Shown here in pieces: positions 1,766 through 24,094 of a stretch of DNA of 64,000 nt. The position numbers and the translations under genes were made by a program. Origin of the DNA: Parvularculaceae bacterium (GTDB lineage: Bacteria > Pseudomonadota > Alphaproteobacteria > Caulobacterales > Parvularculaceae); the NCBI GenBank assembly GCA_021776435.1, contig JAJFFW010000041.1, forward strand, positions 6,351 through 70,350, read 5' to 3'. Under the pieces are notes generated by a model. The model searched no databases, had not been told where the DNA came from, and saw only the letters and a list, made by a program, of their open reading frames with translations. How positions within the stretch are numbered: the first letter of the stretch is position 1; each line of letters begins with the position of its first letter.

Positions 1766-2401
1766 ATGAGAGACCCCCACGATATTTTCATGAATACGCT
1801 TGTGCCCATGGTCGTTGAGCAATCCAGCCGCGGTGAAAGGGCGTATGATATTTATTCGCGTCTCTTGAAGGAGCGAATTATCTTCCTTTCAGGGCCTGTG
1901 CACGATACTGTCTCGACGTTAATCGTCGCGCAGCTGCTCTTTCTCGAGGCCGAAAACCCAAAGAAAGAAATTGCCCTTTACATTAATTCACCCGGTGGAT
2001 CGGTGTCTGCGGGCCTCGCGATGTATGACACGATGCGGTATATCAGTCCCGCTGTTTCTACGATGTGCGTAGGGATGGCTGCCTCAATGGGGTCCTTATT
2101 GCTGACGGCAGGTGAGAAAGATTTAAGGTTCTCGCTGCCAAATTCGAGGATCATGGTGCATCAGCCTTCTGGAGGCTTTCAAGGCCAGGCGTCTGATATT
2201 GAGCGCCACGCACAAGATATTATTGAGGTTAAACGGCGACTTAACGAAATTTACGTACACCATACGGGGCAACCGTATGAAATGATCGAGAACACGCTTG
2301 ATCGTGATCATTTCATGACTCCAGAATATGCGGTTGAATTTGGCTTGATTGATAAGGTTTTGACTGAACGTGCGACCGGATCTGACGAAAAAGAAGGTTA
2401 A
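1766..2401 (+). CDS. clpP: ATP-dependent Clp protease proteolytic subunit
   Basis: Starts '[34 protein letters not shown]'. Catalytic Ser in GMAASMGS and His in [11 protein letters not shown] at 1766 has an AAGAGG SD 6 nt upstream; the ORF track starts 3 nt earlier at a TTG. Confidence 0.95.
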
Positions 2402-2598
2402 ATGTCAATTTGGTCTCGTTGGGAGAAACATTTCTTGATTGAGCTAAGCGGAATATGGTCGAATAATGTGAAAATGAAGGGCATGGCGCCCTTCGTGCAC
2501 GATTTGCGTACGAGCCGCTGATGTCGTCCTGAATGGGACCTGAGCTGTAATGGCAGGCTATCCGTCGGCGTGCGGCGCGAATAAGGAGTATTGTAAGG

Positions 2599-3885: not shown

Positions 3886-3915
3886 TGTTTGTTTTCCTTC
3901 TTGGTTTATCCTCAA

Positions 3916-3945
3916 CTTGAAAGTGCGGCGAACAACGCCACATTA
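3916..3945 (+). promoter_or_regulatory. candidate sigma32 (heat-shock) promoter of lon
   Basis: CTTGAAA-N15-CCACATTA, compared with the consensus CTTGAAA-N13-15-CCCCATNT. Lies about 110 nt upstream of the lon ATG. Confidence 0.35.
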
Positions 3946-4054
3946 AGTATGCTTGCCGCTATAGTAGCGCTGGTCGTTCAGTGACCTGTCGCGACGCGGC
4001 GTGAGCTGATATGACCAGAGCGCCATAATGGGCTCTGAGTGTTAGGAGATTTGG

Positions 4055-8275: not shown

Positions 8276-8351
8276 GGGCGGTTAGCTCAGCTGGTAGAGC
8301 ATCTCGTTTACACCGAGAGGGTCGGCGGTTCGAACCCGTCACCGCCCACCA
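8276..8351 (+). tRNA. tRNA-Val (anticodon TAC)
   Basis: 76 nt. GGGCGGT...ACCGCCCACCA acceptor, D-arm AGCTCAGCTGGTAGAGC, anticodon loop TTTACAC, T-arm GGCGGTTCGAACCCGTC. Confidence 0.9.
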
Positions 8352-9055: not shown

Positions 9056-12000
9056 TCAATGCTCTGGTGCTTGCGCCAGCTCGGCCTCGACTTTGCGGCC
9101 CTCTGAGGCGCGCGGCTTGGATAGGCCAGCGAGCATCAGATAGGCGACCGGGGTCAGGAACAATGTGAAGACGGTGGCAAAGCCAAGTCCGCCCACCACG
9201 ATCCAGCCGAGGGCGGCGCGCGATTCAGCCCCCGCGCCGGCGCCGAGGATCAGCGGCACGCCGCCGAGAAGAGTTGAAATCGCCGTCATCAAAACGGGTC
9301 GCAATCGGGTGATCGAGGCGTGCTCGATCGCCTCGCGCACAGACTCGCCGCGATCGCGCAGCTGGTTAGCGAATTCGACAATCAAAATGCCGTTCTTGGC
9401 CATAATGCCGATCAGCAGCACCAGCCCGATCTGGCTGTAATAATTGATCGATCCGCCCGTCAGTACGATCGCATAAACAGCGGCTGCAAGGCCGAAGGGC
9501 ACGGTCACCATAATAATCAGGGCACTGATAAAGCTTTCAAATTGTGCGGCCAGCACCAAAAACACGATCAGCGCGGCAAAGCCGAAGACCAAAAATGTTG
9601 CGTTGTTTTGCTGTTGCAGCAACCGCGCCTCGCCAAGCGGCGCCACCGAGAGCGAGCCGGTCAGCATTTCGTCCGCAGCTTGGCGCATGGCTGTCACCGC
9701 CTCGCCAAGCCGCGCACCCTCAGCCAGGCTCGCCGTCACCGGCACCGCCCGTCGGCGTTGTTCACGCGCTAGGTTAGAGGCAACCGCCACCTCGTTGATC
9801 GTCGCTACAGATGATAACGGCACGAACCCGCCGCTCGCCGTGCGGACGAAGAGATTAGCAAGGTCGGTCGGGTCATTGACCGGCTCGCCGCCCGCTGAGA
9901 TCAGGACTTCGATGATGTCATCGCCGACAAAAATTTGCGCACCACGATATTCGTCCGCCATCGCCTGCAGCGTCGTGGTGATGGCGTTGACCGGCACGCC
10001 GAGCGAGGTCGCCGCCTCGCGGTCAATGGCGACAGTGATCTGTGGCTGTGAGGTTTGGAAGTTGAGCCGCACATCGGCAAACAGCGGATTGGCTTGCAAC
10101 ACGCCGACAAGTTGCTCGGCAGCGTCCGCGGCGGCGTCATAATCGTCGCCGACAACGGCAAACTGCAAGCCCTGACCAGCGCCCCTGATGCCCAGTGAAT
10201 TACTGCGCCGGATGATCGCATTAGCGCCCGGTATATCGCTGACCAGGGCGCGCACCTGCGCTTCAAAATCTTCCTGTGATTTTTCCCGATCGGCCCAGTC
10301 CGGCAGGCGGAGGATAACAAACGAAAGGTTAGATCCGCGAATACCGTTGATCGACATCACCGTCGTCGCTTCACCACCTTCAACCAGCGGCATCAGCCGA
10401 GATTCCATCTCAAGCACTTTGCGGTCGAGATAATCAAAGCTCGCGCCTTCTTGCCCCACAACCATAAAGAAAACTGCGCCGCGATCTTCCGTCGGCGTGA
10501 GTTCTTTTGGCACAATGCCGAAAACCAGAATTGCGCCAGCGGCAAAAGCAAGTGACGCACCAATGGGCACGGCCGGCAAGCGCAAACAGAAACGCAACAC
10601 CATGCAATAGGCGGCGGAAAGAGGCCCCGCAGGTTTTCGCTTGTGTGCGGGCTGATCCATCTCGGCCAACGTTTCAGGGCGCACCTCGCGTCCGAAGCGC
10701 ACCGTCAGCACAGGGCATAATGTCAGCGCCACAAACGAGGAGACGATAACCGCGAAGGCGAGCACGAAACCAAATTCAGAAAATAACCGTCCGGCCTGAC
10801 CAGGCAGGAACGAGATTGGAACGAACACCGCCGCTAGCGTCACCGTAGTCGAAAGAACGGCGAAGATAATCTCGCGCGTGCCAATCACCGCTGCGGCGCG
10901 CTTGCCCGCTCCCTTGGCGCGCCAGCGTTGGATATTTTCGGTCACGACAATGGCATCATCGACCACCAGACCGGTCGCCATGACCAGCGCCAGCAGGGTG
11001 ATCAAATTGATCGAAAAACCCGCAAGCCATAACGCAGCGACTGTGCCGAGTAGTGATACCGGAATGGTCACCGCGGGAATAATCGTCGCGCGCACCGAGC
11101 GCAGGAATGCAAAGATAATCAACACAACTATTACCGTCGCCAGCAGCAAGCTTTTGAAAACTTCCTTGACGGCCTCGTTGATGAAAATGGAATCATCGAC
11201 CGTGACGTCGATCAGCACATTCGCAGGCAAGGAAGCCTGAAGGCTGGCAACCGCGTCGCGCACGCCGTTTGAGACGGCCACCGTATTCGATTGCGCCTGA
11301 CGGATAATACCGATGCCGATGCCCGGATCGCCATTGACGCGCGCTGTTGTCGTCTCATCCTCAAAACCCCACTCTACCAGCGCCACATCGGCAAGCCGGG
11401 TCTCGTCATCGAGGCGCATGGCGCCGATTTCTTCGGGCGTGGTGGCGGGCGCTTCGGCTCGAATGAGGATTTGCTGGGTGTCGTTGCGCAGGCGGCCGCT
11501 TGGCGCGCTCTGCGAGGCGGTGGCCACAAGGCGCGCCACATCTTCAACGGAAAACCCTCGCGCGGCCAGCGAAACCGGCATGATCCGCACTCGTATGACG
11601 CGATTTCTGACACCATAATCATTGGCCTGCGCCACCCCCTCAACCGATTGCAGGCGGGGCAAGATGACATCATCGACAAGGTCGGCAAGCGTTCCCGCAT
11701 CCATACCGGAGGCAGAGACCGATAGACGCATGATCGGCGACGCGTCGTTGTCAGCCTTGATCACGACAGGCTCTTCCACGTCCAGCGGCAATTGGCGGGC
11801 GATCGCGGAGACTGCATTTTTGACATCAGTCGCCGCAAGATTGATGTCGACGCTGGGCGAGAATTCTGCGGAGATGTTACTGCGTGCGAAGCTCGACGAG
11901 GAAGAGATTGAGACAACGCCGTCTACTTGTGCGACTGCGCTTTCGATGACCGATGTCACTTCCGCGTCAATTGATTCCGGCGTCGCGCCCGGGTAATTCG

Positions 12001-12202
12001 TTCGGATCGATATGACCGGCTGATCAATATCGGGCAGTTCGCGCACCTCGATGCCGAGCGTCGCAGCAAGACCAGCCAGGATAATGATCAGACTAACGAC
12101 AGCGGCAAGGATCGGACGTTGAATGAATATGCCGATAAATCCGCCTGCGCCGCCATGGGAGTCATTGAGCGTAGACGAGAGAAAGGGATCTTCTTGCGCC
12201 AT
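9056..12202 (-). CDS. RND efflux transporter, inner-membrane permease (AcrB/HAE1-like)
   Basis: 1048 aa with the 12-TM/two-large-loop pattern. N-terminus 'FIQRPILAAVVSLIIILAGL...LPDIDQPVISIRTNYPGATPE' and 'VVDDAIVVTENI' are typical of AcrB-family pumps. Confidence 0.9.
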   Translation of the reverse strand: MAQEDPFLSSTLNDSHGGAGGFIGIFIQRPILAAVVSLIIILAGLAATLGIEVRELPDIDQPVISIRTNYPGATPESIDAEVTSVIESAVAQVDGVVSISSSSSFARSNISAEFSPSVDINLAATDVKNAVSAIARQLPLDVEEPVVIKADNDASPIMRLSVSASGMDAGTLADLVDDVILPRLQSVEGVAQANDYGVRNRVIRVRIMPVSLAARGFSVEDVARLVATASQSAPSGRLRNDTQQILIRAEAPATTPEEIGAMRLDDETRLADVALVEWGFEDETTTARVNGDPGIGIGIIRQAQSNTVAVSNGVRDAVASLQASLPANVLIDVTVDDSIFINEAVKEVFKSLLLATVIVVLIIFAFLRSVRATIIPAVTIPVSLLGTVAALWLAGFSINLITLLALVMATGLVVDDAIVVTENIQRWRAKGAGKRAAAVIGTREIIFAVLSTTVTLAAVFVPISFLPGQAGRLFSEFGFVLAFAVIVSSFVALTLCPVLTVRFGREVRPETLAEMDQPAHKRKPAGPLSAAYCMVLRFCLRLPAVPIGASLAFAAGAILVFGIVPKELTPTEDRGAVFFMVVGQEGASFDYLDRKVLEMESRLMPLVEGGEATTVMSINGIRGSNLSFVILRLPDWADREKSQEDFEAQVRALVSDIPGANAIIRRSNSLGIRGAGQGLQFAVVGDDYDAAADAAEQLVGVLQANPLFADVRLNFQTSQPQITVAIDREAATSLGVPVNAITTTLQAMADEYRGAQIFVGDDIIEVLISAGGEPVNDPTDLANLFVRTASGGFVPLSSVATINEVAVASNLAREQRRRAVPVTASLAEGARLGEAVTAMRQAADEMLTGSLSVAPLGEARLLQQQNNATFLVFGFAALIVFLVLAAQFESFISALIIMVTVPFGLAAAVYAIVLTGGSINYYSQIGLVLLIGIMAKNGILIVEFANQLRDRGESVREAIEHASITRLRPVLMTAISTLLGGVPLILGAGAGAESRAALGWIVVGGLGFATVFTLFLTPVAYLMLAGLSKPRASEGRKVEAELAQAPEH

Positions 12203-12207
12203 TCCTG

Positions 12208-13362
12208 TCAGTTTCCTGAAATGGCGTTTCCGGCGCCAGGTGAGAGGCGCAGGGGTTGGGGCTCGCCAAGCGGAATGCCGGGACGCACCCTGTCTGCTCC
12301 CTCAGAGACGACTTCGTCACCGGGGGCGATCTCGCCTTCAACCAACACAATCTCATCTGTGCGCTGAAGTATGGTCACATGAGCACGCACCGCGCCGCCG
12401 TCAAGCCCGCGCTTCCACACATAGGCCCCGGCGCGGTCCCATTGAATGGCGAGGCCTGGAACGGACACCGCCGGGGCGCCAAGGCTGGTTGTTGAAACCG
12501 CGAATACTGCGCCCGGCAACAGCCGGTTATCGGTATTTTCAAATGTCGCTTCGACCCGCAAGGTGCGAGAAGCCGAATTGACGCGGCTGTCGATGGCGGA
12601 GACGGCGCCCTCATAACGACGTCCGGCGGCGGACGCGAGCGTGGCGCTGACCATCTGGCCAATCTCGATAAAGCTCGCTGTTTCCTGCGGCACGGCAAAC
12701 TCGATGACGATCGACGACGTGTCATCAAGAGTGGCGATCACATCGCCCGCGCGGATATAATCGCCGGGTTCGATTTCGGTAAGGCCAGCAATCCCGGTAA
12801 AGGGCGCTTTGATCGACCGTTGATCAACGGCGAATTGCGCGGCCCGCAAATCTGCTTCGAGAGTTTTGAAATTGTTGAAAGCCGCCTCGGCTTCCAGCGC
12901 AGATGCGGCATTGGCCTTTGCGAGGTCAGCATAGCGTTCGGAATTTTCTTTCGCCACCGGATATTGCGCGTGGGCGCGGTTGAGCGCGATGTGTTGTTGT
13001 TCATCATCGATGAGGATCATCACATCGCCCGCCGTCAGCCTTGCGCCGGGGGTGAAGGCAACCTCTTTAACCAGGCCCGTGACTTCGGAGGTGATGGTAA
13101 TGCTCTTTAGCGAACGGCCCTGGCCAATAACGTCGATGGTTTTGCCGAGTGCAGCTTCCTGTGCTGTGGAAATCGTCACCGCCGGCGCATAACCGCCGCG
13201 TCCGCCCCCTCGGTTACCGCCTTGGCTGGACTGCGCGCCATCTTGTGCCGGAGCCCCGCCAGCGGTTTTGTTTTGTCCCGTGGTCAGCACCAGCCCTGTG
13301 ATCGCCGCACCGGCAATCAATACGAAAACAGCGCCCAGATTAAGGGTTGCTCGAAGCTTCAT
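12208..13362 (-). CDS. RND efflux periplasmic adaptor (membrane fusion protein, HlyD_D23 family)
   Basis: 384 aa. N-terminal anchor, lipoyl/barrel-sandwich motifs ('GDVMILIDDEQ', 'IKAPFTGIAG'). Lies 5 nt upstream of the RND permease. Confidence 0.88.
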   Translation of the reverse strand: MKLRATLNLGAVFVLIAGAAITGLVLTTGQNKTAGGAPAQDGAQSSQGGNRGGGRGGYAPAVTISTAQEAALGKTIDVIGQGRSLKSITITSEVTGLVKEVAFTPGARLTAGDVMILIDDEQQHIALNRAHAQYPVAKENSERYADLAKANAASALEAEAAFNNFKTLEADLRAAQFAVDQRSIKAPFTGIAGLTEIEPGDYIRAGDVIATLDDTSSIVIEFAVPQETASFIEIGQMVSATLASAAGRRYEGAVSAIDSRVNSASRTLRVEATFENTDNRLLPGAVFAVSTTSLGAPAVSVPGLAIQWDRAGAYVWKRGLDGGAVRAHVTILQRTDEIVLVEGEIAPGDEVVSEGADRVRPGIPLGEPQPLRLSPGAGNAISGN

Positions 13363-13860
13363 TCTCTCTCCGTCGGTGCGGCTCCACCGGGCAGCCTTAT
13401 TATTGCGCCATTATTGCGCCGTTTAGCCTTGGCGGGTGCGTATAACACTTCGCCATCCTAACACAGCTATAACGCATCACATCTTACGATCCGTCGCCCT
13501 TTTCAGATCAAGATTGGGTTACCGGCTTTGATGCGGTTGGGGGAAGGTGCGATTGACCTCCAGAAAGTGAATTTTATTCTATAAATCAATTACTTAATAA
13601 AAAATTTTGATAAATAAAGGGTTCCCCTTGCCCAAAACTCGATTCTGGTGTGCTCGTGGCGTCATTCACCGAGAGGTTGGGAGCGGTTCAGGTCACTTGA
13701 TTGCGTAACCGTTCTGCTACGGACTTTTGAGAGTTGTCAGACCATCGCGAATACCCGTCCACACAACCCCATTGGCATGATTGCGCAGAAAGGTATTCCA
13801 GATTTGCGGCAGTCGGACACAACTTCGAATTTTCGATGCCGATGGAAGGGCATTTCCCCT

Positions 13861-14922
13861 TTAATTTTCGGATGGCAAAGCAGGCTCAACACTCGGAATA
13901 ATGGTCGAATCTGATAGGAATGTCATGTCATACCAATCAACAATCGCCGCGCCGATCTCAGCTCCGTGGTCTTCCTGAACGAAGTGGATACCGTCACCCA
14001 GAAATTGGGCGTCCAGATTTTTCCAATCACGGGCCATCGCTTCAGCCCGGGTTTTCGGAATCAGGGCGCCGGGATCGAAATAGAACATCAGTTTTGGCGT
14101 GGAGGATGATGGCAACCACTCGGCGAATGGCGAAATTCGCGCAGCGACATCTTCCGGTTTACCGTCAAAGGGAATCTGCCGTGGCCACACAAGGGTCGGC
14201 AAGCGTGAACCGAAGGTCGGAAACGGCTCGCGATAGGCTGCCATCTCTTCATCGGTCAATTCACGTACGACACTGAGCGGCAGGACGTTCTCAACGAAGA
14301 AATTACGTCCCATGATCATCAATTCCCCAATGCCTTTTGTGCGAAACATTTTAAAAAGCCGTTGGGGGAGCGGGGCCAAATCATTCATAGAGGATATACG
14401 CAGTATGGCTTCCATAAAGACAATGCCTTTGACATTCTCTTGATGCCGGAATGCGTAATCAAACCCTAGCGCTGATCCCCAGTCATGAATGACAAGGGTG
14501 ACATTTTGCAAGTCCATCGCCTCAATAAAACTGTCGATGTAATCCGCATGTTCAATAAAAGTGTAACCGATGTCCGGTCGGTCGGAAGCTCCGAAGCCGA
14601 TGTTGTCGACTGCGATCGCGTGCGCGCCCGATGCTGCGACGACGGGAAGAACATTACGCCAGAGATAGGACGACGTAGGGTTGCCGTGAAGGAACAAAAA
14701 AACCGGGCCGTCCGGATCTCCCTCGTCGATATAGTGCATGCGTGATCCATCGATAGTAATGTAGTGCGACTTGAATGGATAATTGGCCCAAACCTCCGAC
14801 ATTTGCCTCTCCGGTTTTTGTACCGGGTCGGCGTTGAGCGTCGTCAGATAAAAAGCAAAGCCTGCAAGCAGGGAAAGCCCGATTAGAATAAGGCCAAAAA
14901 TCCATTGGAAGAATGTTGCCAT
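13861..14922 (-). CDS. dhaA: haloalkane dehalogenase, HLD-II (DhaA/LinB-like), with extra N-terminal transmembrane anchor
   Basis: 'FLFLHGNPTSSYLWRNVLP' (halide-binding Asn), 'LVIHDWGSALGF' (nucleophile Asp plus Trp), 'GIVFMEA' (catalytic Glu), 'GIHFVQEDH' (His). Collinear with DhaA as I recall it. Preceded by the hydrophobic segment 'FFQWIFGLILIGLSLLAGFAFYL'. Confidence 0.85.
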   Translation of the reverse strand: MATFFQWIFGLILIGLSLLAGFAFYLTTLNADPVQKPERQMSEVWANYPFKSHYITIDGSRMHYIDEGDPDGPVFLFLHGNPTSSYLWRNVLPVVAASGAHAIAVDNIGFGASDRPDIGYTFIEHADYIDSFIEAMDLQNVTLVIHDWGSALGFDYAFRHQENVKGIVFMEAILRISSMNDLAPLPQRLFKMFRTKGIGELMIMGRNFFVENVLPLSVVRELTDEEMAAYREPFPTFGSRLPTLVWPRQIPFDGKPEDVAARISPFAEWLPSSSTPKLMFYFDPGALIPKTRAEAMARDWKNLDAQFLGDGIHFVQEDHGAEIGAAIVDWYDMTFLSDSTIIPSVEPALPSEN

Positions 14923-15109: not shown

Positions 15110-16618
15110 TTAGAAATATTTTGAGGGTCTACCTGAGGGAATGAATGGGATGCCTTTGCCAACATTTCTGAATGTGATTGGCAGCGTGAACGAGATTGAA
15201 AAATCAGGCGATTGATCCGTTAATCCGATAGACGCGGATGCGAGGAGCGTGCGTCCTCTTGGCGTTGCGATTGCGGTGCCGAACACTAGACGGGCGTCAT
15301 TCGTTGCCGTGCCGATCGATTCAATGCCGTTCTGTCTTGTTTTCTTCGTATGTCGATTGATGAATGAAGTGCTGATCGATACGCGGTCACTGATGGCGAA
15401 ATTGAACCCCGCAAACCAGCCGAATGAGTCACCAGGATCGATGACACCAAACTCGTCAAACTCCTGCTGGAGATTAAGAGCGTAGTCGGCGCCGCCGAAA
15501 TAGACGAGGGGATCGTTACGCCAGACGAAATTCGCGCCCGGAGAAACTGCGTAATGGCCTCCACCTGTTGGAGGATTCACCAGTCGGCTTTCACCACCAC
15601 GGTCGATGACTTCACTCTCGATTTCAAATGGGTTGCGACCGGTCGGGAATCGAGCGGTCGCCTTCAATACGGTCGCCGGAATGAGTCCATTGTTGGAAAT
15701 CGGCTGCCAGGACAATGTCGCCTCGATATCGCCGAGGTCGACATCGCTAACCGTACGTTCACGGATATCGGCTGTTCCAATACCCAATATTTCCTTATCA
15801 CGCCTATAAACCCCGGGAACTCTCGCCTCAAGTTGAAGTCGCTCAGCGATCCCGTAACGCACCGTCAAGGAACTTGTGACGATATCCCGGCGCAAATCAT
15901 CAACGCGGATCGTTCCGATAACAATCGCGTCAAAAATGGAAAACCCGTTGATAGCAACATTGTTGCCTGAGAGGTGCGAATAATCGAAACCAGGTTCGAT
16001 CTGTAACGAACCAGGGGAGAGTAGAATGCCGCCAGTATCAATCAACAGCTGATCGATGGGCCTCTCTGAAGCGGGACGTGCGGTTTCATTCGCATCAGAC
16101 GATTCCGTATTTTGGCTATCGGTTGATCGTCGTGATTGGGTGATCTCATCCGGTCCGTTCTCTTTCGGACGCAACGCTCCTTGTGTGGTCTCAGTGTTGA
16201 AACCCTTTGGCGCGACCGGGCGTGGGCTGTTTTCAGCTATTGTGTTAATTGTTTTTTGCTCGCTGTTTTGGTCGACCCTGACGCCAGAATCATAACCGCT
16301 GACAGGGCCACCTTTGCTTGCCAATGCAGCATCAGGGTTCGTGCCATCGGCTATTTGTTCTTTTAAAAGTTGGAGCTCTTCAAACTGAGCCTTGAGTATT
16401 TGAAACTGACCTTCAATAGCCTGACTTTGCTTTTGTAACTCCTCGGCTTGAAGTCGCAAAACCGATTCCTGCAGTTCTATCCGTTGTAGAAAGTCAATAT
16501 TCGTCTCGGTTTGGGCGTATGCGTTGAGACTTGTCAGGGATACGAAGGATAGACATGTAATGCGAAGTGAATTCTTCTGCATCGCGGATGTTACGTTCAT
16601 TCGCTTGGTATTCAACAT
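15110..16618 (-). CDS. FapF-like outer-membrane beta-barrel with N-terminal coiled coil
   Basis: Signal peptide '...LSFVSLTSLNAYAQ'. Heptad coiled coil 'LQRIELQESVLRLQAEELQKQSQAIEGQFQILKAQFEELQLLKEQI'. Polar low-complexity linker, then alternating-hydrophobic beta-strand region containing 'ARFPTG' and a C-terminal Phe ('SKYF'). Alternative starts at 16648 (GTG), 16600 and 16582. The ATG at 16618 sits 7 nt after a G8 run that could serve as its SD. Confidence 0.7.
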   Translation of the reverse strand: MLNTKRMNVTSAMQKNSLRITCLSFVSLTSLNAYAQTETNIDFLQRIELQESVLRLQAEELQKQSQAIEGQFQILKAQFEELQLLKEQIADGTNPDAALASKGGPVSGYDSGVRVDQNSEQKTINTIAENSPRPVAPKGFNTETTQGALRPKENGPDEITQSRRSTDSQNTESSDANETARPASERPIDQLLIDTGGILLSPGSLQIEPGFDYSHLSGNNVAINGFSIFDAIVIGTIRVDDLRRDIVTSSLTVRYGIAERLQLEARVPGVYRRDKEILGIGTADIRERTVSDVDLGDIEATLSWQPISNNGLIPATVLKATARFPTGRNPFEIESEVIDRGGESRLVNPPTGGGHYAVSPGANFVWRNDPLVYFGGADYALNLQQEFDEFGVIDPGDSFGWFAGFNFAISDRVSISTSFINRHTKKTRQNGIESIGTATNDARLVFGTAIATPRGRTLLASASIGLTDQSPDFSISFTLPITFRNVGKGIPFIPSGRPSKYF

Positions 16619-16666
16619 GAATACACCCCCCCCAAAGAGTTGACGCACTTCGCTGCCTCAGTAGAA

Positions 16667-17125
16667 TCAATTCCCACCAAGCGCTGCCATTAATGATGAT
16701 ACGGCATCTGGCGCTGTGCCGTTTATGATCGCGATATTAATCGTCAGCGTGTTGTTGATAATGTTATTATTTCCTTCGATATTCGCCAGTTGGAATATTC
16801 CATTTGCGCCGGCGAAGCTGCCCAGGGCGCCACTCAACTGCACGTGATTCTCATCGGAAAAGGATACACCAACACCATCTGGCAGCGTGTTGGCGCCACC
16901 GCTGTTGGCGATAGAACCGCCAAATAGGATAGAGAAGGCGATGCCGCCAAACCCGCCGCGTAATTCACCCATTTCTTTATCTGACAGAGCTTCATTTCCG
17001 CATTCGTGTTTGGAAACGCCAAGTGCATCGCAAAGCGTTGTAGACTCTGCGTTGGCATTCGTAGGAACAACAAAGGCTAAAACGGCCAGAGCAGTAGATG
17101 CTTTAATAAATCGAATAAACATCAT
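16667..17125 (-). CDS. small secreted Gly/Asn-rich protein (occupies the FapE position)
   Basis: 152 aa. Signal peptide 'MMFIRFIKASTALAVLAFVVPTNANA'. G/N/A-rich mature part. Located between the C39 peptidase and the barrel, as fapE is in Pseudomonas. Confidence 0.55.
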   Translation of the reverse strand: MMFIRFIKASTALAVLAFVVPTNANAESTTLCDALGVSKHECGNEALSDKEMGELRGGFGGIAFSILFGGSIANSGGANTLPDGVGVSFSDENHVQLSGALGSFAGANGIFQLANIEGNNNIINNTLTINIAIINGTAPDAVSSLMAALGGN

Positions 17126-17180
17126 GTGACTCCCATATACAAAATAAAACCAAACTCGAGATCATGACCAACACAAGCAC

Positions 17181-17876
17181 TTAGAACTCATTTCCTGACG
17201 GCGTAATTGACACACTGGTTTGATTCCAAAGTGAAATGAGCGTATTCATTCGACCGTACAGCGCGTAATCACGCATAAATACAGTGTTCTGCAGTTCCGA
17301 ATCTGCATCTACCAGGGCGAGGACAACACCATCCCATTCTTTTGAGAACTCAATAGTATTCTGTGTACGGTTACCAAAAGCGGGATCGGCGACGAACACT
17401 TTTCCGTCTTTCGCAGCTCTAATAACGACGAAATGGGCGTATCCGCGAACGGTTGTCAGCGCGATGACGGGCGCTTTCAGCTTCTCTAAACTTTCAACCC
17501 CGTCCAGGCGAAAACCTCCACCTAAAAGACCTTTTCGTTCACCTGCTTGTTTCAACTCAAGTAGGGAAAACCCATACTGATTAATATTATCACGTTGCTT
17601 TTCAGAAACATTCTCGAAGATATCATTGATGATGTCGCGTTCACTTATGGTCAGATCAAAATGGAATTGCAGTAAAGTGGCGAGCGCCGCTGCTCCACAA
17701 CTCAGATCTTCCGTCTGGCGGATGACGCCACCATAGCGCATATCGATGAATGATTTCACAGGTAGATAGACTGGTGATGTATGGGGCAGGGTGGATGTCA
17801 AACGTAACTGCCCCTGCGCAGGCATGATTGAGGCTAACATTATCAGCGCGACAAAGCCTACGAAGCTGCGCATCAA
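17181..17876 (-). CDS. periplasmic C39-family cysteine peptidase (FapD-like)
   Basis: 231 aa. Signal peptide 'MMRSFVGFVALIMLASIMPAQG'. Catalytic Cys in 'EDLSCGAAALATLLQF', His in 'GYAHFVVIRA', and 'VADPAFGN'. A 4-nt overlap with the upstream gene suggests translational coupling. Confidence 0.75.
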   Translation of the reverse strand: MMRSFVGFVALIMLASIMPAQGQLRLTSTLPHTSPVYLPVKSFIDMRYGGVIRQTEDLSCGAAALATLLQFHFDLTISERDIINDIFENVSEKQRDNINQYGFSLLELKQAGERKGLLGGGFRLDGVESLEKLKAPVIALTTVRGYAHFVVIRAAKDGKVFVADPAFGNRTQNTIEFSKEWDGVVLALVDADSELQNTVFMRDYALYGRMNTLISLWNQTSVSITPSGNEF

Positions 17877-18763
17877 AAACCTCCCAAATTCGTCATAGTA
17901 ATGCCAATTTTATTGCTCACCTGGTTGAGTGAACCGGCGGTTTGGGAAATTTGGGCGACGCCCGTAAAGTTATTAAATGAGTTCGAGAGTCGGGTGACGC
18001 GTGTTTGTTCCTCATTGAGGTTGTACTCATTATCCTTGTTCACCGAAACTGCCGCGAGCTCGGCATCGCCAATCAGCGCTGCCGGAACCGCGTCATTGAT
18101 TCCGATTGAAAATGCGAGCGCGAATGCATTTATCTGCTGGTTGAGGGCGCCTGCGGACTGGTTTATGCCGACCACACCGGACGTATTATTGAAACTATCC
18201 TCTATCCGTGTCTGCAACGTATGCGCCCGGTCAAACACGCGATTGGCGATTAGGGTTTGCGACGTATCAAGGAGAGCAATTGCGCCGCCGCCAGTTGATA
18301 CGCCTGCAATTGATATCACGTTGGCTTGGCTCTCGCCCACCCCTGCGCTCATATTGAAGCCAGCAAGACCGTGAAAAGCATTCACCGAATTCTCTAAACT
18401 TACTTCGTAGCCGTTGTTTAAAGTGACAGAATTGCCGGCGGTGTCTTGTGAAATCGCGGCGTAAGCGGCTGCGAAGGCGGATGCCGCGACGAACAGGGGG
18501 CCGTCCGCTTCAAACGGGTTTGGCGTCTCTGAACCGTAAAACCCGTTGCGCCCCGTCGGTTCCGGCTCGCCTGGAAGCACACCAATGTAGATATATGCGG
18601 GGTTTTCCGGATTGTAGGCCTCAGATGTCTCCGCCTCCACTGGTGGTTGTGAAGAGTCAACCGACGTCTCTAGCGCAGCGGCGATATCGAACCCGGAGAG
18701 AACGATGATCACTGCCAGGCCTAGAACGACTGACCGCATTGGCCGCGTCGATCGAACATTCAT
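17873..18763 (-). CDS. secreted amyloid-repeat protein, paralog 3 (Fap subunit-like)
   Basis: Signal peptide 'MNVRSTRPMRSVVLGLAVIIVLSG'. Three imperfect repeats: 'AFHGLAGFNMSAGVGESQANVISIA', 'SFNNTSGVVGINQSAGALNQQINAFALA', 'SFNNFTGVAQISQTAGSLNQVSNKIGIT'. Start moved to the ATG at 18763. Confidence 0.65.
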   Translation of the reverse strand: MNVRSTRPMRSVVLGLAVIIVLSGFDIAAALETSVDSSQPPVEAETSEAYNPENPAYIYIGVLPGEPEPTGRNGFYGSETPNPFEADGPLFVAASAFAAAYAAISQDTAGNSVTLNNGYEVSLENSVNAFHGLAGFNMSAGVGESQANVISIAGVSTGGGAIALLDTSQTLIANRVFDRAHTLQTRIEDSFNNTSGVVGINQSAGALNQQINAFALAFSIGINDAVPAALIGDAELAAVSVNKDNEYNLNEEQTRVTRLSNSFNNFTGVAQISQTAGSLNQVSNKIGITMTNLGGF

Positions 18764-18895
18764 GAAATCATGAATGCAATGAGTGATAGAAAAAACACAT
18801 TGAGCCATCGTGACTTTCTCCAACAAGTCTTCGCAATTAGCGCGCTGACGTAAATCATGAATCGTCAGCGCGCACTTTTCTTTGGTGGTCTTAAA

Positions 18896-19894
18896 CTAGT
18901 TCGTAGAAAGACCGATGCCAGCGAGACTCGAGATCGCTGCGACACTGACTACGGTCGACTGGTTATTATGGTAACCGGTTGACTGATTCACATTGATGAT
19001 GCCGGAATTACCTGAAAACGATCCTGTAATCGTATCGTATTTCACAGTATTTTCGTCATCGACAACATTGAAACCATTGACCTGAGCGATACCTGCATCG
19101 GCCAGAGCATAGGCGGCATCGTCGCCAATCGCCGCAGCGAGTGCGTTCGATTGATTGTTACTGTTGCCGGTGTTCTGGTTGAATTGAAGGACGCCAGAGT
19201 TGCCTCTGAAGCTATTATCGATCGTTGCATTCAGATGGCCGGGCGCAAGTGTAATCAATTGGGCCGGCGTGGCGGCAAGGACTTCGTCTAACGAAGCTCC
19301 CGGATCGCCCTGGAATGGGGTCAGTTCGTGGTGAAAGGTTTCGTTGAAGACGTTCACCTGATCTGAATAGGCTTCAGAATGGGCGAATGTGCCAGTAATC
19401 AGAATGGGCTCGCCTGTGGCATTATCGACCTCACCATTGGGCGATCCATTATCAGTAGCGCCTGTCAACGCGATGGAGGCGAAATTGCCCTGTTGGGCCA
19501 TATTACCAGAATCCTGGTTCGCCTGCATAATGCCCTGATTATTATTGAACGAACTCAATGTTTCGGACGTTTTGTTGATCATCATATTTTGGGATTGACT
19601 CAGGGTAGCGGCGTCGCCCTCCGGTCCCAGTTCGCCTTCGTCGCCAAAATAGCTGACGCGATTAAAGCCGTTCCATTGATTGCCGAAAGCATGGGCTTCA
19701 GCGGCGCCCTCCAGATCCCTGTTGAACATGACGTCAATAGTCGCGAATTTAAACTTCACGACGAAGATGTCGATGTCGATACTTTTTGCTTTGTCTACGT
19801 CCCAACTCAAAAAGACATCTGCTTGGGCCGCGCCTGATGCGAACACAGCTGTTGCTGCGACGCCTGACAGGATTATAGCCTTGAGATTTTTCAT
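18896..19894 (-). CDS. secreted amyloid-repeat protein, paralog 2 (FapB/FapC-like)
   Basis: Signal peptide 'MKNLKAIILSGVAATAVFASGAAQA'. Repeats 'SFNNNQGIMQANQDSGNMAQQGNFASIA', 'SFRGNSGVLQFNQNTGNSNNQSNALAAA', 'SFSGNSGIINVNQSTGYHNNQSTVVSVA'. Confidence 0.7.
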   Translation of the reverse strand: MKNLKAIILSGVAATAVFASGAAQADVFLSWDVDKAKSIDIDIFVVKFKFATIDVMFNRDLEGAAEAHAFGNQWNGFNRVSYFGDEGELGPEGDAATLSQSQNMMINKTSETLSSFNNNQGIMQANQDSGNMAQQGNFASIALTGATDNGSPNGEVDNATGEPILITGTFAHSEAYSDQVNVFNETFHHELTPFQGDPGASLDEVLAATPAQLITLAPGHLNATIDNSFRGNSGVLQFNQNTGNSNNQSNALAAAIGDDAAYALADAGIAQVNGFNVVDDENTVKYDTITGSFSGNSGIINVNQSTGYHNNQSTVVSVAAISSLAGIGLSTN

Positions 19895-19916
19895 GACTTA
19901 CATTTCTCCCAATGAA

Positions 19917-21020
19917 TTAAAAAGCGCCGCTGACAGTATTGGCGGCGGGATTACCGACGACAGAAAGCGAAACGACATTCGCCTGGTTCGCCATATTGCC
20001 GGTCGTCTGATTGAAACCAATGATTCCGGAGTTTCCGTTGAAAGATCCGTTGATGCGGGACAGCTTATTAATGCCGACGAGGCCATCTCCTGAGTCGGAT
20101 TCCATCACTTCATTGAAAACAGTGTATTGGCCAAGGTCCGCTTCAGACAACGCCACACCCGTTTCGGCAAGTGAAACAGCAAGGGATAGCGCGTTAGCCT
20201 GATTGTTCATATTACCAGCGGCTTGGTTCCCGTGGAGAACGCCGGAATTGCCAGAAAACGATGCATCGACAACTGCGTTCCTGAATACGACGTTCACTGT
20301 CTTCACGTGGTTTGCGAAAAGAGAGGGATCTGTCGGTAGAAATGCAGCGCCATCAGCGTTGAGGCCCGCGAGAACAGCACTACGTACGAGGTCGACGTTT
20401 GCGAAACCACCCTGATCAAGCGGCGCGTCTGGGAAACTCGAGGTGTAGCTCCCAAAATTACCTTCCGATGCATCACTGAGGGGGTTCTCGGGACCGCCAT
20501 TGATCGATGCGGCCGTTCCTTCGTCGGGGCGCAGGAATACGACGCCGTTATTTTGGCTGACTGCGGCCTGAGATTCGGCGAAGCCGCCCGGCGTGCGCGG
20601 ATGTTCACCCGTTGTAGGTGGCTCACCCGGAGTTGTCGGGGGCAATGGACTATCGGGCGCGCCCGAGAAGTCATAGGCGATTGAGGTCGCACTGCCTTGG
20701 TTGTTCTGGTTACCGCTAGCCTGGTTTGCAGAAATAAGACCGGTGCTGTTGTTGAAGGACTGAAAGATATAATCCTGCTTTTCCGCACAATTGGAACAAG
20801 CAGTATTTGCAAAGTTGTTTTGATTGACGAGAGCGAAAGATTCAGCGAATTTTTCCGCATCGATAAAAATATTGGCATCAGCCGTTATGAATTTAGCAAT
20901 GCCAATTCTCTCAAAAATCAAAATGTCTTTCTCATGTTGTATAGCGACGTTGAGGTCGCCATCTGCTAAAGCGGGTGTGACGGCTAATAGAGATGCCCCC
21001 GCAAACAATAGCTTCTTCAT
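19917..21020 (-). CDS. secreted amyloid-repeat protein, paralog 1 (FapB/FapC-like) with Pro/Thr-rich linker
   Basis: ATG at 21020 preceded by GGAGAA. Signal peptide 'MKKLLFAGASLLAVTPALA'. Repeats 'SFNNSTGLISANQASGNQNNQGSATSIA', 'SFSGNSGVLHGNQAAGNMNNQANALSLA', 'SFNGNSGIIGFNQTTGNMANQANVVSLS'. CxxC ('CSNC') and a 'PLPPTTPGEPPTTGEHPRTPGG' linker. Confidence 0.7.
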   Translation of the reverse strand: MKKLLFAGASLLAVTPALADGDLNVAIQHEKDILIFERIGIAKFITADANIFIDAEKFAESFALVNQNNFANTACSNCAEKQDYIFQSFNNSTGLISANQASGNQNNQGSATSIAYDFSGAPDSPLPPTTPGEPPTTGEHPRTPGGFAESQAAVSQNNGVVFLRPDEGTAASINGGPENPLSDASEGNFGSYTSSFPDAPLDQGGFANVDLVRSAVLAGLNADGAAFLPTDPSLFANHVKTVNVVFRNAVVDASFSGNSGVLHGNQAAGNMNNQANALSLAVSLAETGVALSEADLGQYTVFNEVMESDSGDGLVGINKLSRINGSFNGNSGIIGFNQTTGNMANQANVVSLSVVGNPAANTVSGAF

Positions 21021-21243
21021 CGAGTTCTCCTTTTTCGAGAAGGGAGCCCCAAAACGGTCCGGCCCCAAGTGCAATTTGATCTTTGCCCGAGATGCTTCGG
21101 CGAAAATTAAAATTTCTTAACTAATCGAAATATTTCTCGATATAAGAGTGAGATGTGAATTTATGCGTACACTGGTGTTTTGCGTGCGTCCGCTCTCATC
21201 GATTCGCTTTGTGTTTTCACCCTGAAAAAACGATTATGATCGC

Positions 21244-21537
21244 ATGCCCAAGAACAGCGAACAATCTTCGAGTCATCCCCATAGGAGAAAACGGACTTTC
21301 ATCGTGAATGGCCGAGCATCTGATGCGGCAGGAAAACCGCCCATCTTTAAGGTTTTGCGCCCCGCTTCGATTTCACGAAAGCCTCAATATATAGAGATTA
21401 AAAAAGCGACCGATAAAATATGGCTTCTCTATGTTTATAATAAAGACGCCGATAGCCCAACTTGCTATGCATTCCATAGCCGTGAAGATGCGCTCGCCGC
21501 CTACGAAGAAATTTGGCCGGAGGCGTCTCGCGAGTAA
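21244..21537 (+). CDS. hypothetical protein (97 aa)
   Basis: ORF only, with no recognisable motif. Its 3' end overlaps the convergent FNR-like gene by 37 nt. Confidence 0.3.
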   Translation: MPKNSEQSSSHPHRRKRTFIVNGRASDAAGKPPIFKVLRPASISRKPQYIEIKKATDKIWLLYVYNKDADSPTCYAFHSREDALAAYEEIWPEASRE

Positions 21538-22286
21538 GGACTTGCTTTGAAATCTTTGTTCCTCTTTTCATGACGGGCTGAAAACGACCTGAGGGCTTCA
21601 ACGTCAAGGATGGTCAATTTTCCACGACCGATCTCAACCACATTTTGACTTTCCAACGTTTTAAGAATTTTGTTGACATAAACGGATGTCAGGCTAATTG
21701 CATCGGCGATGTCGATTTGTCGTAGAGGTAACACCAATGGTTTTGTGTCTGGGGAGCGCCGGCGGCTTTGTGCACGATTAGACAGTTCCACCAAAAGATC
21801 CAACAGACGGTCAAGCGCGGACCCGCCAACGGCATTTATGAGATGCCGGTGCCAACGGTCCTGTTGCATGTCGGCAATATCAGATATGCGCAAGCCTATT
21901 TCTGGGTGATCTTCGATTAATCTACGCATTCGAGTGTGTGGGATTGTGCAGATGGCTGCGTCAGTAAGGCATTCAGCGGTGAAAGTTGAGGACGGACTGG
22001 CCGATGTCATGTGTCCAAAAGTATCGCCGGCGACCAGTATTTCTAGCACTCTGCGCGCACCGGAGCTGTCGTGATGGAATAGCGATATCCATCCGGCAAT
22101 AACTTGGTGATAATGATGAAGCACGTCTCCCTGCTGAACAATCATAGCGTGAGAGCGGAAAACACGATCGGACAGCTTAGCTTCTTCGAGAAGATGGGTG
22201 TATTCTGTTGGTACAGCACCGCATAGGTCGCCGTGCCGATTAAAGCAATGGGCGCAATGCGACGGTATAATAGGTGTCGACGGCAT
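21501..22286 (-). CDS. Crp/Fnr-family transcriptional regulator, FNR-type (N-terminal Cys cluster)
   Basis: 'SHCAHCFNRHGDLCGAV' (C-x2-C-x7-C) plus the central 'AAICTIPH' Cys, as at the FNR [4Fe-4S] ligand positions. cNMP-binding beta-roll. C-terminal HTH 'RQIDIADAISLTSVYVNKILKTLE'. ATG at 22286 has a GGAGAA SD. Confidence 0.8.
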   Translation of the reverse strand: MPSTPIIPSHCAHCFNRHGDLCGAVPTEYTHLLEEAKLSDRVFRSHAMIVQQGDVLHHYHQVIAGWISLFHHDSSGARRVLEILVAGDTFGHMTSASPSSTFTAECLTDAAICTIPHTRMRRLIEDHPEIGLRISDIADMQQDRWHRHLINAVGGSALDRLLDLLVELSNRAQSRRRSPDTKPLVLPLRQIDIADAISLTSVYVNKILKTLESQNVVEIGRGKLTILDVEALRSFSARHEKRNKDFKASPYSRDASGQISS

Positions 22287-22678
22287 ACTTTTCTCCAGAA
22301 ATTTAGAAGTTCTTCCAGTCCGCGAGGTCATGTCAGTCCAACAAGCGCTTCATCCGTTGAAGCGCGGCTAGCCGAGCGTGAATGAGTCTTACTCGGTCGC
22401 GAAATCCTGCTCTGCGTGCAAATACTACGGAAAGCCGGTCACGTGTTCTGATGAAATGCTGGCGTCATGCTTTTCCTCCCCCGAGGCTAGATGGTCCTAC
22501 TCTAAAAGATACATAAATAATAAATATTAGAGATAACTTTGATGCAGATTTAGCAAAATGATTAGTAAAGAATGTATGGGTAAAGAAAGTTGTTAAAGTA
22601 TACAATAACTACCGTGAGTTAAGCCAAAACGTAAGCAAGCCATAGGTTGCGTAGCGGTTACAAATATTCTCAATATCG

Positions 22679-23629
22679 TTAGTATAGATACTGATCGATC
22701 TGAGGTGTCTCCTTGATAAGGTTGGCCTGCGTCAAGGCCCACGCATTGTAATAGGCGTCAGTCAAAACGTTTTTATCCCATACATCAAGGTCGTAGTGTT
22801 GCATGCGAATCCATTCGACGGATTGATCCGCATCAATTGTTATGCCACGGCGATGAAGAAAAATTCGTAAGAGACGTGCTGCGTCATCCGGATCGGCCAT
22901 GATATGGGCCTTTGCTGCACTCCATGCTCTCTTAACAGCGGCAACGGTATCTTCATCATTGGCTAAAATATGCGGAGAAGCGATCAGGGGTTGCGCGCCG
23001 ATATAACCGATTGCATCGGAGATCTCACTCGCGTTGAGTAATAACTGAGCATCGTTTTGCTCAAGCAACAGATCGCCGATTGGCTGCTCGGCGATTGCTG
23101 CATCCATGCCATCACCGAATGCTCGGCCAAGTGAGCCGGGTTCATAATACTTCAAAGTTACGTCGGAAAGATCAATATCGTTGGCATTGAGCAGGCGCGC
23201 AAGCACGACGATAGCATCTGTATCAGGGATTAAGGCTATGGATTTTCCCTTTAGATCAAGGGTATTTTCGATAGCGCTATTTTTATTGACGACTAAAAGA
23301 TGCGCGCTACCCCAGTTATTTATCGCGACCGCTTTGATTTTTGCATTTGCTGCAGCGGCTTGCAATAGAGCCGTTTGAGGCAGCACTGCGAAGTCTGTTG
23401 CTCCAGATGCAAGGGAATTGATAATCGCTTTGTGAGAGGAAACAGCGGCGCCGCTCATATATATGCCCTCGGTAGCCAGAAACCCTCGTTCAGCGGCGAC
23501 GATTGCGGGCACTGCGTCCCATGAACTGGCGTAAGTTATTCTTACGACTTTGAACGTTTGAGCACTGACGACGTTGACTGCGCAAAAGTTCAACGCCAAC
23601 GAAAAGGCCAATAGAATCATCTTGAACAT
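22679..23629 (-). CDS. periplasmic solute-binding protein, NMT1/THI5-like (SsuA/TauA/NrtA-type); orphan
   Basis: Signal peptide 'MFKMILLAFSLALNFCAVNVVSAQ'. Type-2 SBP pattern ('SSWDAVPAIVAAERGFL', 'GKSIALIPDTD'). No adjacent permease or ATPase genes. Confidence 0.6.
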   Translation of the reverse strand: MFKMILLAFSLALNFCAVNVVSAQTFKVVRITYASSWDAVPAIVAAERGFLATEGIYMSGAAVSSHKAIINSLASGATDFAVLPQTALLQAAAANAKIKAVAINNWGSAHLLVVNKNSAIENTLDLKGKSIALIPDTDAIVVLARLLNANDIDLSDVTLKYYEPGSLGRAFGDGMDAAIAEQPIGDLLLEQNDAQLLLNASEISDAIGYIGAQPLIASPHILANDEDTVAAVKRAWSAAKAHIMADPDDAARLLRIFLHRRGITIDADQSVEWIRMQHYDLDVWDKNVLTDAYYNAWALTQANLIKETPQIDQYLY

Positions 23630-24094
23630 AGCTGGAAGTCCCCCCGTCAATCACCGTCATAGCAATTGAGATGTACCACGAATAAACCATTGATAACCAA
23701 AAATAGGAAATCTTGATTCAACTAGTTAAAGTTGAGCCCTATTTTCTCCTCCACCTTCATGGAGAAATGACCCTGGTCTCTTTCAAAAAAAACTTCTCTG
23801 GGGCAAATTCGAGGCGCGGCCCGTGAATGCCCGGAAAGGGTATTGATCCAACTGACTTTCATCCCGTATTTCGGATCGATTCAAGTAAGAAATTTCATTC
23901 CAAATACCGGCCTGTATGCAGACATTATTTTGTTCGTCGCCGTCGGCTCCTCTGTTTTCCAAGTGAAACAAATAATTGCAAAGGGAGAGATCAACGGAAC
24001 CGCAAATTGATGTGATTGCTTTATCAGAGCTATGTTTTTAGATGATTATCTGATACGGAAAGCTAAACAATAGTGGTGAGCGCCGAGGTGAAAA

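Follow-up and report, generated by a model that had tools for sequence, protein, structure and literature searches.

A 64,000-nucleotide (nt) stretch of contig JAJFFW010000041.1 from a Parvularculaceae bacterium, hereafter called the window, carries six genes that we read as an operon of the Fap type for the biogenesis of a functional amyloid, or of an amyloid-like fiber, belonging to a distinct clade of such systems. We put the probability of this reading at about 0.8. The products, designated A to F, comprise three repeat-bearing secreted proteins (A, B, and C), a C39 cysteine peptidase (D), a small secreted protein (E), and an outer-membrane protein (F). A sequence-only reading of the same DNA had proposed a Fap-like secretion locus here, and this proposal is now supported by tests of sequence, profile, and fold. 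Coordinates are those of the window, and features lie on the minus strand unless stated otherwise.

Organization of the operon and its products

The open reading frame (ORF) listing gave six co-directional ORFs spanning 15110-21074. Starts were set from ribosome-binding sites and signal peptides at 21020 for A (an ATG behind AAAGGAG), 19894 for B, and 17873 for D, with alternatives at 18808, 18763, or 18739 for C, 17125 or 17122 for E, and 16618 or 16648 for F. The spacing between genes from A to F amounts to 22, 87, −1, 55, and 48 nt, the negative value being an overlap of the C stop with the D start, and the tight, co-directional arrangement noted earlier (six genes at 15110-21020, gaps of −1 to 87 nt) is thereby borne out. 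A typical Sec signal peptide could be read directly from the sequence on each of the six products, with ends at ...VTPALA/DG in A, ...GAAQA/DV in B, ...MPAQG/QL in D, ...TNANA/ES in E, and ...LNAYA/QT in F. The subunits are followed by D, E, and F, which is the operon order fap(A)BCDEF; the match to fapB/C-fapD-fapE-fapF drawn by the sequence-only reading stands, and the order of subunits, C39 peptidase, small protein, and coiled-coil barrel is kept in related loci.

No FapA-like candidate was found within or beside the operon in the ORF list or in family searches, as had been claimed: the gaps are too small for such a gene, and the sole upstream ORF matches no family. The latter, a 97-amino-acid (aa) plus-strand ORF at 21244-21537, lies between gene A and the regulator gene described below, overlaps the 3′ end of the regulator gene, and is a gene call in a public catalogue. 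It was rejected as a FapA-like gene, being on the opposite strand without a signal peptide or a family match, and it is weakly conserved, only in locus L002. Since FapA is absent from 6 of the 16 Fap-bearing genera in a 2013 survey (PMC3792158), its lack here is no obstacle to a Fap identity.

The three FapB/C-type secreted fiber subunits are A (367 aa, 19917-21020, signal peptide MKKLLFAGASLLAVTPALA), B (332 aa, 18896-19894, signal peptide ...ASGAAQA), and C (311 aa, 17873-18808, with a start that may lie at 18763 or 18739). Each contains three imperfect copies of a ~36-aa unit of the type SFnNxSGvvgxNQxaGnxNNQxN, which a repeat hidden Markov model (HMM) located at 20667-20777, 20169-20279, and 19953-20063 in A (E value, ~1e-16), at 19460-19570, 19121-19231, and 18929-19039 in B, and at 18296-18406, 18104-18214, and 17888-17998 in C. 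The earlier description of three secreted paralogs with three Asn/Gln/Gly-rich repeats each was therefore correct, and the HMM revealed no repeat-bearing ORF beyond A, B, and C in the 64-kilobase (kb) window. When searched with NCBIfam models, A matched FapC at 1.5e-12 (47.9 bits; cut-off, 195) and FapB at 1.9e-9, B matched FapB at 2.3e-12 (46.9 bits; cut-off, 190) and FapC at 3.2e-8, and C matched FapC at 5.4e-19 (69 bits; cut-off, 195) and FapB at 1.7e-15. The Pfam release searched recognized only D among the six proteins; in a public gene catalogue, A, B, and C each carry a precomputed match to PF27129 (FapBC), a more recent Pfam family. Furthermore, phmmer aligned C repeat on repeat with the FapC fibril chains 9u4u and 9nqd, solved by cryo-electron microscopy, at an E value of 1e-6.

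Exactly three imperfect repeats per subunit is also the state of about 94% (>93%) of published FapB and FapC genes (PMC12392863), and it is shared by 22 of 23 homologs of A, 23 of 25 of B, and 16 of 21 of C. The number of subunit genes differs. Two of them, for the nucleator FapB and the major subunit FapC, are present in 94.5% of published Fap clusters (PMC12392863), whereas there are three orthologous paralog groups here. In a neighbor-joining tree (all trees in this work are of this kind and carry no bootstrap or other support values), A, B, and C each formed an orthologous group, A and B being sisters, with Aeromonas FapB and FapC outside. Longer C proteins (347-379 aa) with 4-5 repeats occur in five Sphingomonadales-type loci (L009, L010, L012, L019, and L022), which come from Parasphingorhabdus, Erythrobacter, and one alphaproteobacterial metagenome-assembled genome (MAG); the usual number is three.

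Protein D (230 aa, 17181-17873) is a FapD-like periplasmic C39 cysteine peptidase. It carries a signal peptide and matched Pfam Peptidase_C39 at 2.3e-20 and NCBIfam C39_FapD at 2.9e-39 (135 bits; cut-off, 330). The predicted catalytic residues are C59 (17697-17699), the Cys of LSCGAAALA, and H147 (17433-17435), the His of GYAHFVV, both as first read from the sequence; neither these two nor Q53 and D163 vary among 27 sequences, Aeromonas FapD included. Profile match, signal peptide, and invariant residues thus agree in pointing to a periplasmic C39 FapD with an active Cys and His. In Pseudomonas, FapD is periplasmic, and its active-site Cys is required for secretion (Rouse et al. 2017, PMC5557850).

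Protein F (502-512 aa, 15110-16648) is a FapF-like outer-membrane exporter, and its residues are numbered here in the 512-aa form. Behind the signal peptide come a coiled-coil helix of 49 residues (52-100; 16349-16495) with N, I, L, L, I, L, L, and I at its heptad d positions, a disordered linker of 85 residues (110-194; 16067-16321) that is polar and rich in Ser, Ala, Thr, Glu, Pro, and Asn, a plug helix (196-204; 16037-16063), and a beta-barrel (215-493; 15170-16006). An AlphaFold2 (AF2) model built with 22 homologs gave predicted local distance difference test (pLDDT) scores of >90 in the barrel, 80-95 in the long helix, and <50 in the linker. With ...PITF, the last barrel strand reaches its end at residue 492; a 20-residue tail ending KYF follows, so that the sequence-only account of a signal peptide, a ~50-residue heptad coiled coil, a polar disordered linker, and a barrel ending in Phe agrees with the model for strand and tail alike. 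The tail (RNVGKGIPFIPSGRPSKYF, 15110-15170) is common only to the closest relative, L002.

The FapF architecture of coiled coil plus barrel, also part of the earlier proposal, is borne out by sequence and by predicted fold. Residues 198-492 of F aligned with residues 20-333 of the FapF crystal chains 5o65, 5o67, and 5o68 (phmmer E value, 8e-34), and the NCBIfam FapF model matched at 2.6e-44 (152 bits; cut-off, 700). In a Foldseek search with the model, the best 18 PDB matches were all FapF chains (template modeling score, 0.85-0.88 on the target; E value, 2.5e-23; root mean square deviation, about 2.6-2.7 Å for the top matches); the next-best fold was COG4313, at 5.6e-10. The modeled F therefore combines the coiled coil, disordered linker, plug helix, and FapF-type barrel of a Fap exporter, and the coiled coil is, by homology with FapF, presumably trimeric. 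The barrel is ~29% identical to FapF of Pseudomonas UK4, not far from the average of 32% reported for FapF proteins outside Pseudomonadales (PMC3792158).

The small protein E and its leader-like motif

Protein E (152 aa, 16667-17125) lies between D and F in all related loci that contain it, and it can be described as a mini-FapE-like protein. With a signal peptide, 14% Gly, and 11% Asn, it is the secreted Gly/Asn-rich protein that had been noted before. The signal peptide is followed by a motif resembling a double-glycine leader and then by a conserved stretch of Gly and aromatic residues; the C-terminal segment is Asn-rich and repeat-like. The motif in the window, L45-S-D-K-E-M-G-E-L-R-G-G58 (LSDKEMGELRGG, 16952-16993), is a predicted C39 cleavage site with the cut after G58. 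R-G-G is invariant in 21 of 21 syntenic E homologs, ~30 residues past the signal peptide, and the residues ahead of it in these proteins follow the pattern [LM]-[ST]-[DE]-x-[ED]-[LM]-x-x-x. When clustered at 50% identity, the E family accounts for 180 clusters among 1.84 billion representative proteins. Among 149 distinct members, we found L, M, V, or I at position −12 in 98%, S or T at −11 in 52%, D or E at −10 in 91%, E or D at −8 in 79%, L or M at −7 in 99%, and L, I, or M at −4 in 73%. The values of 100% for R at −3 and for G at −2 and −1 are true by construction, because R-G-G was the search anchor of this set, and the independent evidence for its invariance is the count of 21/21 in syntenic homologs. 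None of the A, B, C, and F families has the motif, which is thus confined to E.

Double-glycine leaders cut by C39 peptidases, such as those of bacteriocins, have the classical consensus LSxxELxxIxGG, and the predicted site in E is this consensus position by position. C39 domains cut at GG (Rouse et al., PMC5557850). Since an invariant R-G-G stands behind a double-glycine-leader-like motif, E is probably the substrate of D. This prediction bears on a question left by work on Pseudomonas, in which FapE alone loses ~70 N-terminal residues, the target of FapD was called unclear, and Fap proteins were said to lack canonical C39 sites (Rouse et al. 2017, PMC5557850); our literature search found no later paper settling the FapD target. 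In contrast to the Pseudomonas proteins, E in the window carries an explicit motif of the double-glycine type. A candidate site for the FapD class, a leader-like LSxxE(L/M)xx(L/I)RGG in a FapE-like protein, makes the question of the FapD substrate testable and, if true, would provide the first sequence-defined substrate and recognition motif for this class.

The same fit to the bacteriocin-leader consensus, together with the fact that, among proteins of solved structure, D is closest to the peptidase domains of bacteriocin ATP-binding cassette (ABC) exporters, would also suit a reading in which D and E form a module for maturation of a bacteriocin or other peptide, with E, a secreted peptide, as the true cargo and with the repeat proteins as unrelated surface proteins. 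We regard this as very improbable. Both D and E have Sec signal peptides, D lacks an ABC transporter domain, and the motif sits past the signal peptide, so that cleavage would be periplasmic. Moreover, no bacteriocin family matched E, which never occurred without FapBC genes and F in the loci examined.

On the preferred reading as a Fap operon, E would hold the place of FapE. Its operon position and its Sec signal followed by a putatively processed N terminus are consistent with FapE. Related motifs are present in Aeromonas FapE (ELAHLRGR, LADGELAHLRGR) and in the E-position proteins of Polymorphobacter (ITDYELATMRGG) and Croceicoccus (LSEEVLARQRGG). FapE is, FapB aside, the sole NCBIfam family recurrently matched by members of the E family, with matches in 5 of 21 syntenic proteins and in 11 of 146 members at an E value of ≤0.001 (best, 3.4e-7). 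The match falls on the C-terminal Asn-rich segment of E (GALGSFAGANGIFQLANIEGNNNIINNTLTINI), which fits the published likeness of the FapE C terminus to amyloid repeats (PMC5557850).

Relation to known Fap systems and the proposed fiber

The host, a marine-type alphaproteobacterium, belongs to the Parvularculaceae, as judged from ClpX: the window protein (2599-3885) shares 93% identity with its counterparts in Hyphococcus luteus, other Hyphococcus species, and Marinicaulis aureus, and 88-91% with those of many Parvularculaceae MAGs. The alphaproteobacterial setting claimed by the sequence-only reading is therefore upheld. About 55 relatives of F were obtained at 90% clustering, few of them named ("hypothetical protein," once "autotransporter"), from Rhodospirillales, Hyphomonadaceae, unclassified "Proteobacteria" MAGs, and, once, Dissulfurispira. 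In a scan of one genome per GTDB species, F alone as the query gave no locus and an alignment of F gave 24; locus counts from such pattern-based scans are lower bounds. Among the 24 are loci of the cultured Ferruginivarius sediminum and Parasphingorhabdus sp. JC815, MAGs of Erythrobacter, Dongiaceae, Rhodospirillaceae, Hyphomonadaceae, Hypericibacter, and "Alphaproteobacteria," three Nitrospira, two Methylomirabilota, and three more distant loci of delta/Thermodesulfobacteriota. Nearly all the alphaproteobacterial loci have the order A-B-C-D-E-F, with each subunit best matching its positional counterpart, an overlap of the C stop with the D start, and E proteins of 146-190 aa. Gene order and the three orthologous subunit groups are kept in >20 genomes and in many metagenome contigs. 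The number of subunit genes per locus ranges from 2 to 4 across the clade, being nearly always three in Alphaproteobacteria, four in Nitrospira, and two in Methylomirabilota, and none of the loci has FapA.

In the tree of F barrels, the window clade stood apart from the FapF proteins of Pseudomonas and Aeromonas, from a second Fap-like group (Cupriavidus, a Vibrio plasmid, and alphaproteobacterial plasmids or chromids, namely, those of Indioceanicola, Polymorphobacter, and Croceicoccus), and from Acinetobacter FilC. The relatives checked in the window clade and the second group are labeled "hypothetical protein," "C39 family peptidase," or "transporter" in RefSeq/GenBank. Judged from these sequences, the locus belongs to a distinct, syntenic Fap clade of Alphaproteobacteria, Nitrospira, and Methylomirabilota.

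Some loci depart from the common layout. Two Nitrospira loci (L023 and L024) have four subunit genes in the order A, B, B, C. The more distant Dissulfurispira locus (L007, Nitrospirota) combines a pair of FapBC genes with a C39 peptidase and an F-like barrel, lacks E, and is followed by two OmpH/Skp-type chaperone genes. In Ferruginivarius sediminum WD2A32 (L008), F, the binding protein, and the regulator (see below) are found together with no A-E genes within 8 kb upstream; either F is apart from the remaining genes or the system has been partly lost. The second Fap-like group, as seen in its two annotated alphaproteobacterial loci, those of Polymorphobacter and Croceicoccus, has a C39 peptidase, a ~230-aa E-position protein with a related RGG motif, and a FapF-like barrel.

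The sequence-only reading had taken Fap operons to be described mainly from Gamma-, Beta-, and Deltaproteobacteria. This holds as the picture of 2013, when a survey found them restricted to these classes (PMC3792158), and no longer for the GTDB-wide screens of 2025, which list 1,172 and later 1,602 Fap clusters, >90% of them fapABCDEF or fapBCDEF (PMC12392863, PMC12822426), in "many families in the Pseudomonadota," Desulfobacterota, Nitrospirota, and Bacillota (PMC12822426). Thus, the taxonomic novelty is smaller than had been assumed. The supplement of the 2025 review does not give the names of bacterial classes (PMC12822426), and our literature search returned no paper naming FapC together with Alphaproteobacteria.

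Compared with Pseudomonas fapABCDEF, the window operon has the same three-repeat Asn/Gln/Gly subunits, periplasmic C39 peptidase, small putative accessory subunit between peptidase and exporter, exporter of coiled coil, disordered linker, plug helix, and FapF-type barrel, and gene order. It differs in lacking FapA, in having three orthologous subunit genes versus the usual two, in the size of E (~150 aa versus 247 positions in the NCBIfam FapE model and 215 aa in Aeromonas FapE) and its marginal profile similarity to canonical FapE, and in the linkage of an Fnr-like regulator and an orphan binding protein. Closer in makeup is the FapA-less fapBCDEF locus of Aeromonas caviae (L032), which shares the absence of FapA, the gene order, scores below the model cut-offs, and the FapE motif ELAHLRGR; it has, however, only two subunits and a 215-aa FapE, and its FapF goes with Pseudomonas FapF (42% identity) rather than with the window clade (29%). 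Curli (csgBAC/csgDEFG) work alike, in that Sec-exported repeat subunits polymerize only after passing a dedicated outer-membrane channel, but none of the components is homologous, curli lack a C39 peptidase, and the CsgG channel is of another type. The analogy between Fap and curli has also been drawn in a review (PMC12822426).

The Acinetobacter baumannii Fil genes, a "putative pilus system" for which our literature search found no descriptive paper, likewise combine a C39 peptidase with a FapF-like barrel. D matched NCBIfam FilB at 1.3e-28 (100 bits; cut-off, 475), and F matched FilC at 2e-12 (47 bits; cut-off, 630). These matches are the starting point for an alternative in which the machinery is related to Fap and the product is no amyloid, A, B, and C being secreted adhesins or a non-amyloid surface fiber. 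It would be in keeping with a broader superfamily of C39 peptidases and FapF-like barrels that handles other cargo (Cupriavidus, a Vibrio plasmid, Polymorphobacter, Croceicoccus, and Acinetobacter), with the long nonrepeat N-terminal regions and linkers of A and B, and with the presence of three paralogs, not two. Nevertheless, the scores to FapD and FapF are far better than those to the Fil proteins, the window repeats align residue by residue with the cross-beta-core repeats of FapC in 9u4u, and the subunits conform to the three-repeat rule known from FapB and FapC. We therefore consider a non-amyloid product unlikely. The Fil system itself has other cargo and the extra genes FilA, FilE, and FilF, equivalents of which are absent from the window locus, and FilC is the most distant barrel in the F tree (23% identity).

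Several results weigh against reading the locus as a Fap amyloid operon. The scores of all six proteins are below the NCBIfam equivalog cut-offs (34-69 bits versus 190-195 for the subunits, 135 versus 330 for D, 152 versus 700 for F, and 14.5 versus 250 for E). The profile check proposed by the sequence-only reading succeeded with the FapB, FapC, FapD, and FapF models, while FapE matched E at only 0.015, over residues 106-137. When the E family was compared by hhalign with a single canonical FapE, that of Aeromonas, just the 19-residue leader motif aligned, at a probability of 7%. A true FapB/C repeat at the C terminus of E was considered and found unsupported, as the subunit repeat HMM detects one in 1 of 21 proteins, and this segment is only repeat-like. 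The single-sequence AF2 model of C, with a pLDDT of 31, yielded no usable subunit structure. Promoter-like and terminator-like sites for the operon did not exceed shuffled expectation, and no FNR box (TTGAT-N4-ATCAA, ≤2 mismatches) was found in the 480 nt upstream of gene A. Finally, that A, B, and C, and the clade as a whole, form amyloid is inferred from sequence. On the first point, the canonical-order Aeromonas caviae locus is also below every cut-off (78, 173, 249, 47, and 371 bits for fapBCDEF), and sub-cut-off scores are thus no argument against Fap; the cut-offs appear to be set for close relatives of the Pseudomonas proteins. As for E, its homology to FapE is weak.

If the Fap reading is right, the operon could work as follows. 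The signal peptides suggest that Sec exports all six products, and homology to FapF suggests that A, B, and C would traverse the outer membrane in an unfolded state by way of the FapF-like channel. D, with Q53, C59, H147, and D163, would most likely cut E after R-G-G and remove a leader-shaped propeptide of ~32 residues, as the motif and the published Pseudomonas work lead one to expect. The mature E of ~94 residues, with its repeat-like C terminus, may then license secretion, or nucleate and anchor the fiber, as proposed for FapE. Outside the cell, the repeats may stack into a cross-beta fiber serving as a biofilm or adhesion matrix.

To our knowledge, Fap is one of only two well-studied functional-amyloid secretion systems in bacteria, and knowledge of it comes almost entirely from Pseudomonas. 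Although the Fap system itself is already known, the variant architecture looks new; the features that look so are three or four subunit paralogs, a mini-FapE with a double-glycine propeptide, the absence of FapA, and a linked regulator and binding protein. Lineages common in the environment (Sphingomonadales, Hyphomonadaceae, Rhodospirillales, Parvularculaceae, and Nitrospira) harbor the clade, which widens the expected range of amyloid-type matrix fibers.

Linked neighbor genes and genomic setting

Directly upstream of the operon lies a gene for a Crp/Fnr-family regulator (276 aa, 21501-22331) with Pfam cNMP_binding and HTH_Crp_2 domains, whose best NCBIfam match is FnrL (1.1e-15). A homolog adjoins the operon in 15 related loci, and the regulator probably controls its expression. 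The window regulator and its four closest homologs have in common an N-terminal C-x2-C-x7-C and a central Cys, which we take to be the iron-sulfur motif of the FnrL/FnrN type; on this assumption, oxygen sensing by the regulator may be supposed. Sphingomonadales versions of the regulator lack the Cys motif. The sole perfect FNR-box palindrome of the 64-kb window (TTGATCCGCATCAA) is at 22823-22836, inside the binding-protein ORF and ~490 nt upstream of the regulator start, with none upstream of subunit gene A.

The second linked gene (22679-23650) encodes an orphan periplasmic solute-binding protein of the SsuA/NMT1 type (323 aa; signal peptide; Pfam NMT1, 4e-20), near which no ABC permease or ATPase gene was found. 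It recurs beside the operon in loci from Alphaproteobacteria, Nitrospira, and Methylomirabilota, where its gene and F are in most cases convergent, and the typical order in metagenomes is crp(−)/binding protein(+)/F E D C B A(−). In a reverse test on metagenome contigs, with the binding-protein subfamily as the only query, 57 loci were recovered, 35 of them with Fap-like genes. Where at least 1.5 kb was available past the binding-protein gene, Fap-like genes were found in about 30 of 34 loci, and only four had no F. Because Fap-like operons are recovered in this way, the linkage is specific, and it suggests an accessory Fap component. The protein is absent from the loci of Sphingomonadales and Hyphomonadaceae and is therefore not essential to the core machinery. 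No accessory binding protein of this kind is present in any of the Fap papers searched. In the proposed scheme, the conserved orphan protein would act as an accessory factor.

A fuller proposal joins these elements: a separate subtype of Alphaproteobacteria, Nitrospira, and Methylomirabilota, in which the C39 peptidase would mature mini-FapE after R-G-G in a bona fide double-glycine-type propeptide, a dedicated SsuA-fold accessory protein would act as a holdase replacing FapA or as a ligand sensor, and the whole system would be under oxygen-sensing control of the FnrL type. Taken jointly, these claims are speculative, and we doubt that all of them will hold.

The G+C content of 0.478 at 16001-18000 makes this the second-lowest 2-kb block of the window, the lowest being 22001-24000 (0.468); the upstream flank has 0.51-0.59. 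The slight dip fits the patchy, multi-phylum spread of the clade. It is also, at 16-18 kb against flanks of 0.51-0.59, what could be cited for regarding the locus as a decaying or silent remnant of horizontal acquisition with no current function, along with the occurrence of the clade in three phyla, which implies horizontal transfer. To this we assign almost no weight, since all six ORFs are intact and each has a signal peptide and a ribosome-binding site, catalytic residues and cleavage motif alike are invariant, and synteny is conserved, the two neighbor genes included. A functional operon of the Fap type accordingly stays the preferred reading.

The remaining flank features, at 80-161, 193-6445, 8276-8348, and 9056-14922, comprise two tRNAs, several ORFs, a resistance-nodulation-division (RND) efflux pair consisting of an adaptor and an AcrB-type pump, and a haloalkane dehalogenase whose score of 370 bits exceeds the NCBIfam cut-off of 241. 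The 193-6445 segment is a run of four ORFs, among them the clpX gene used to place the host.

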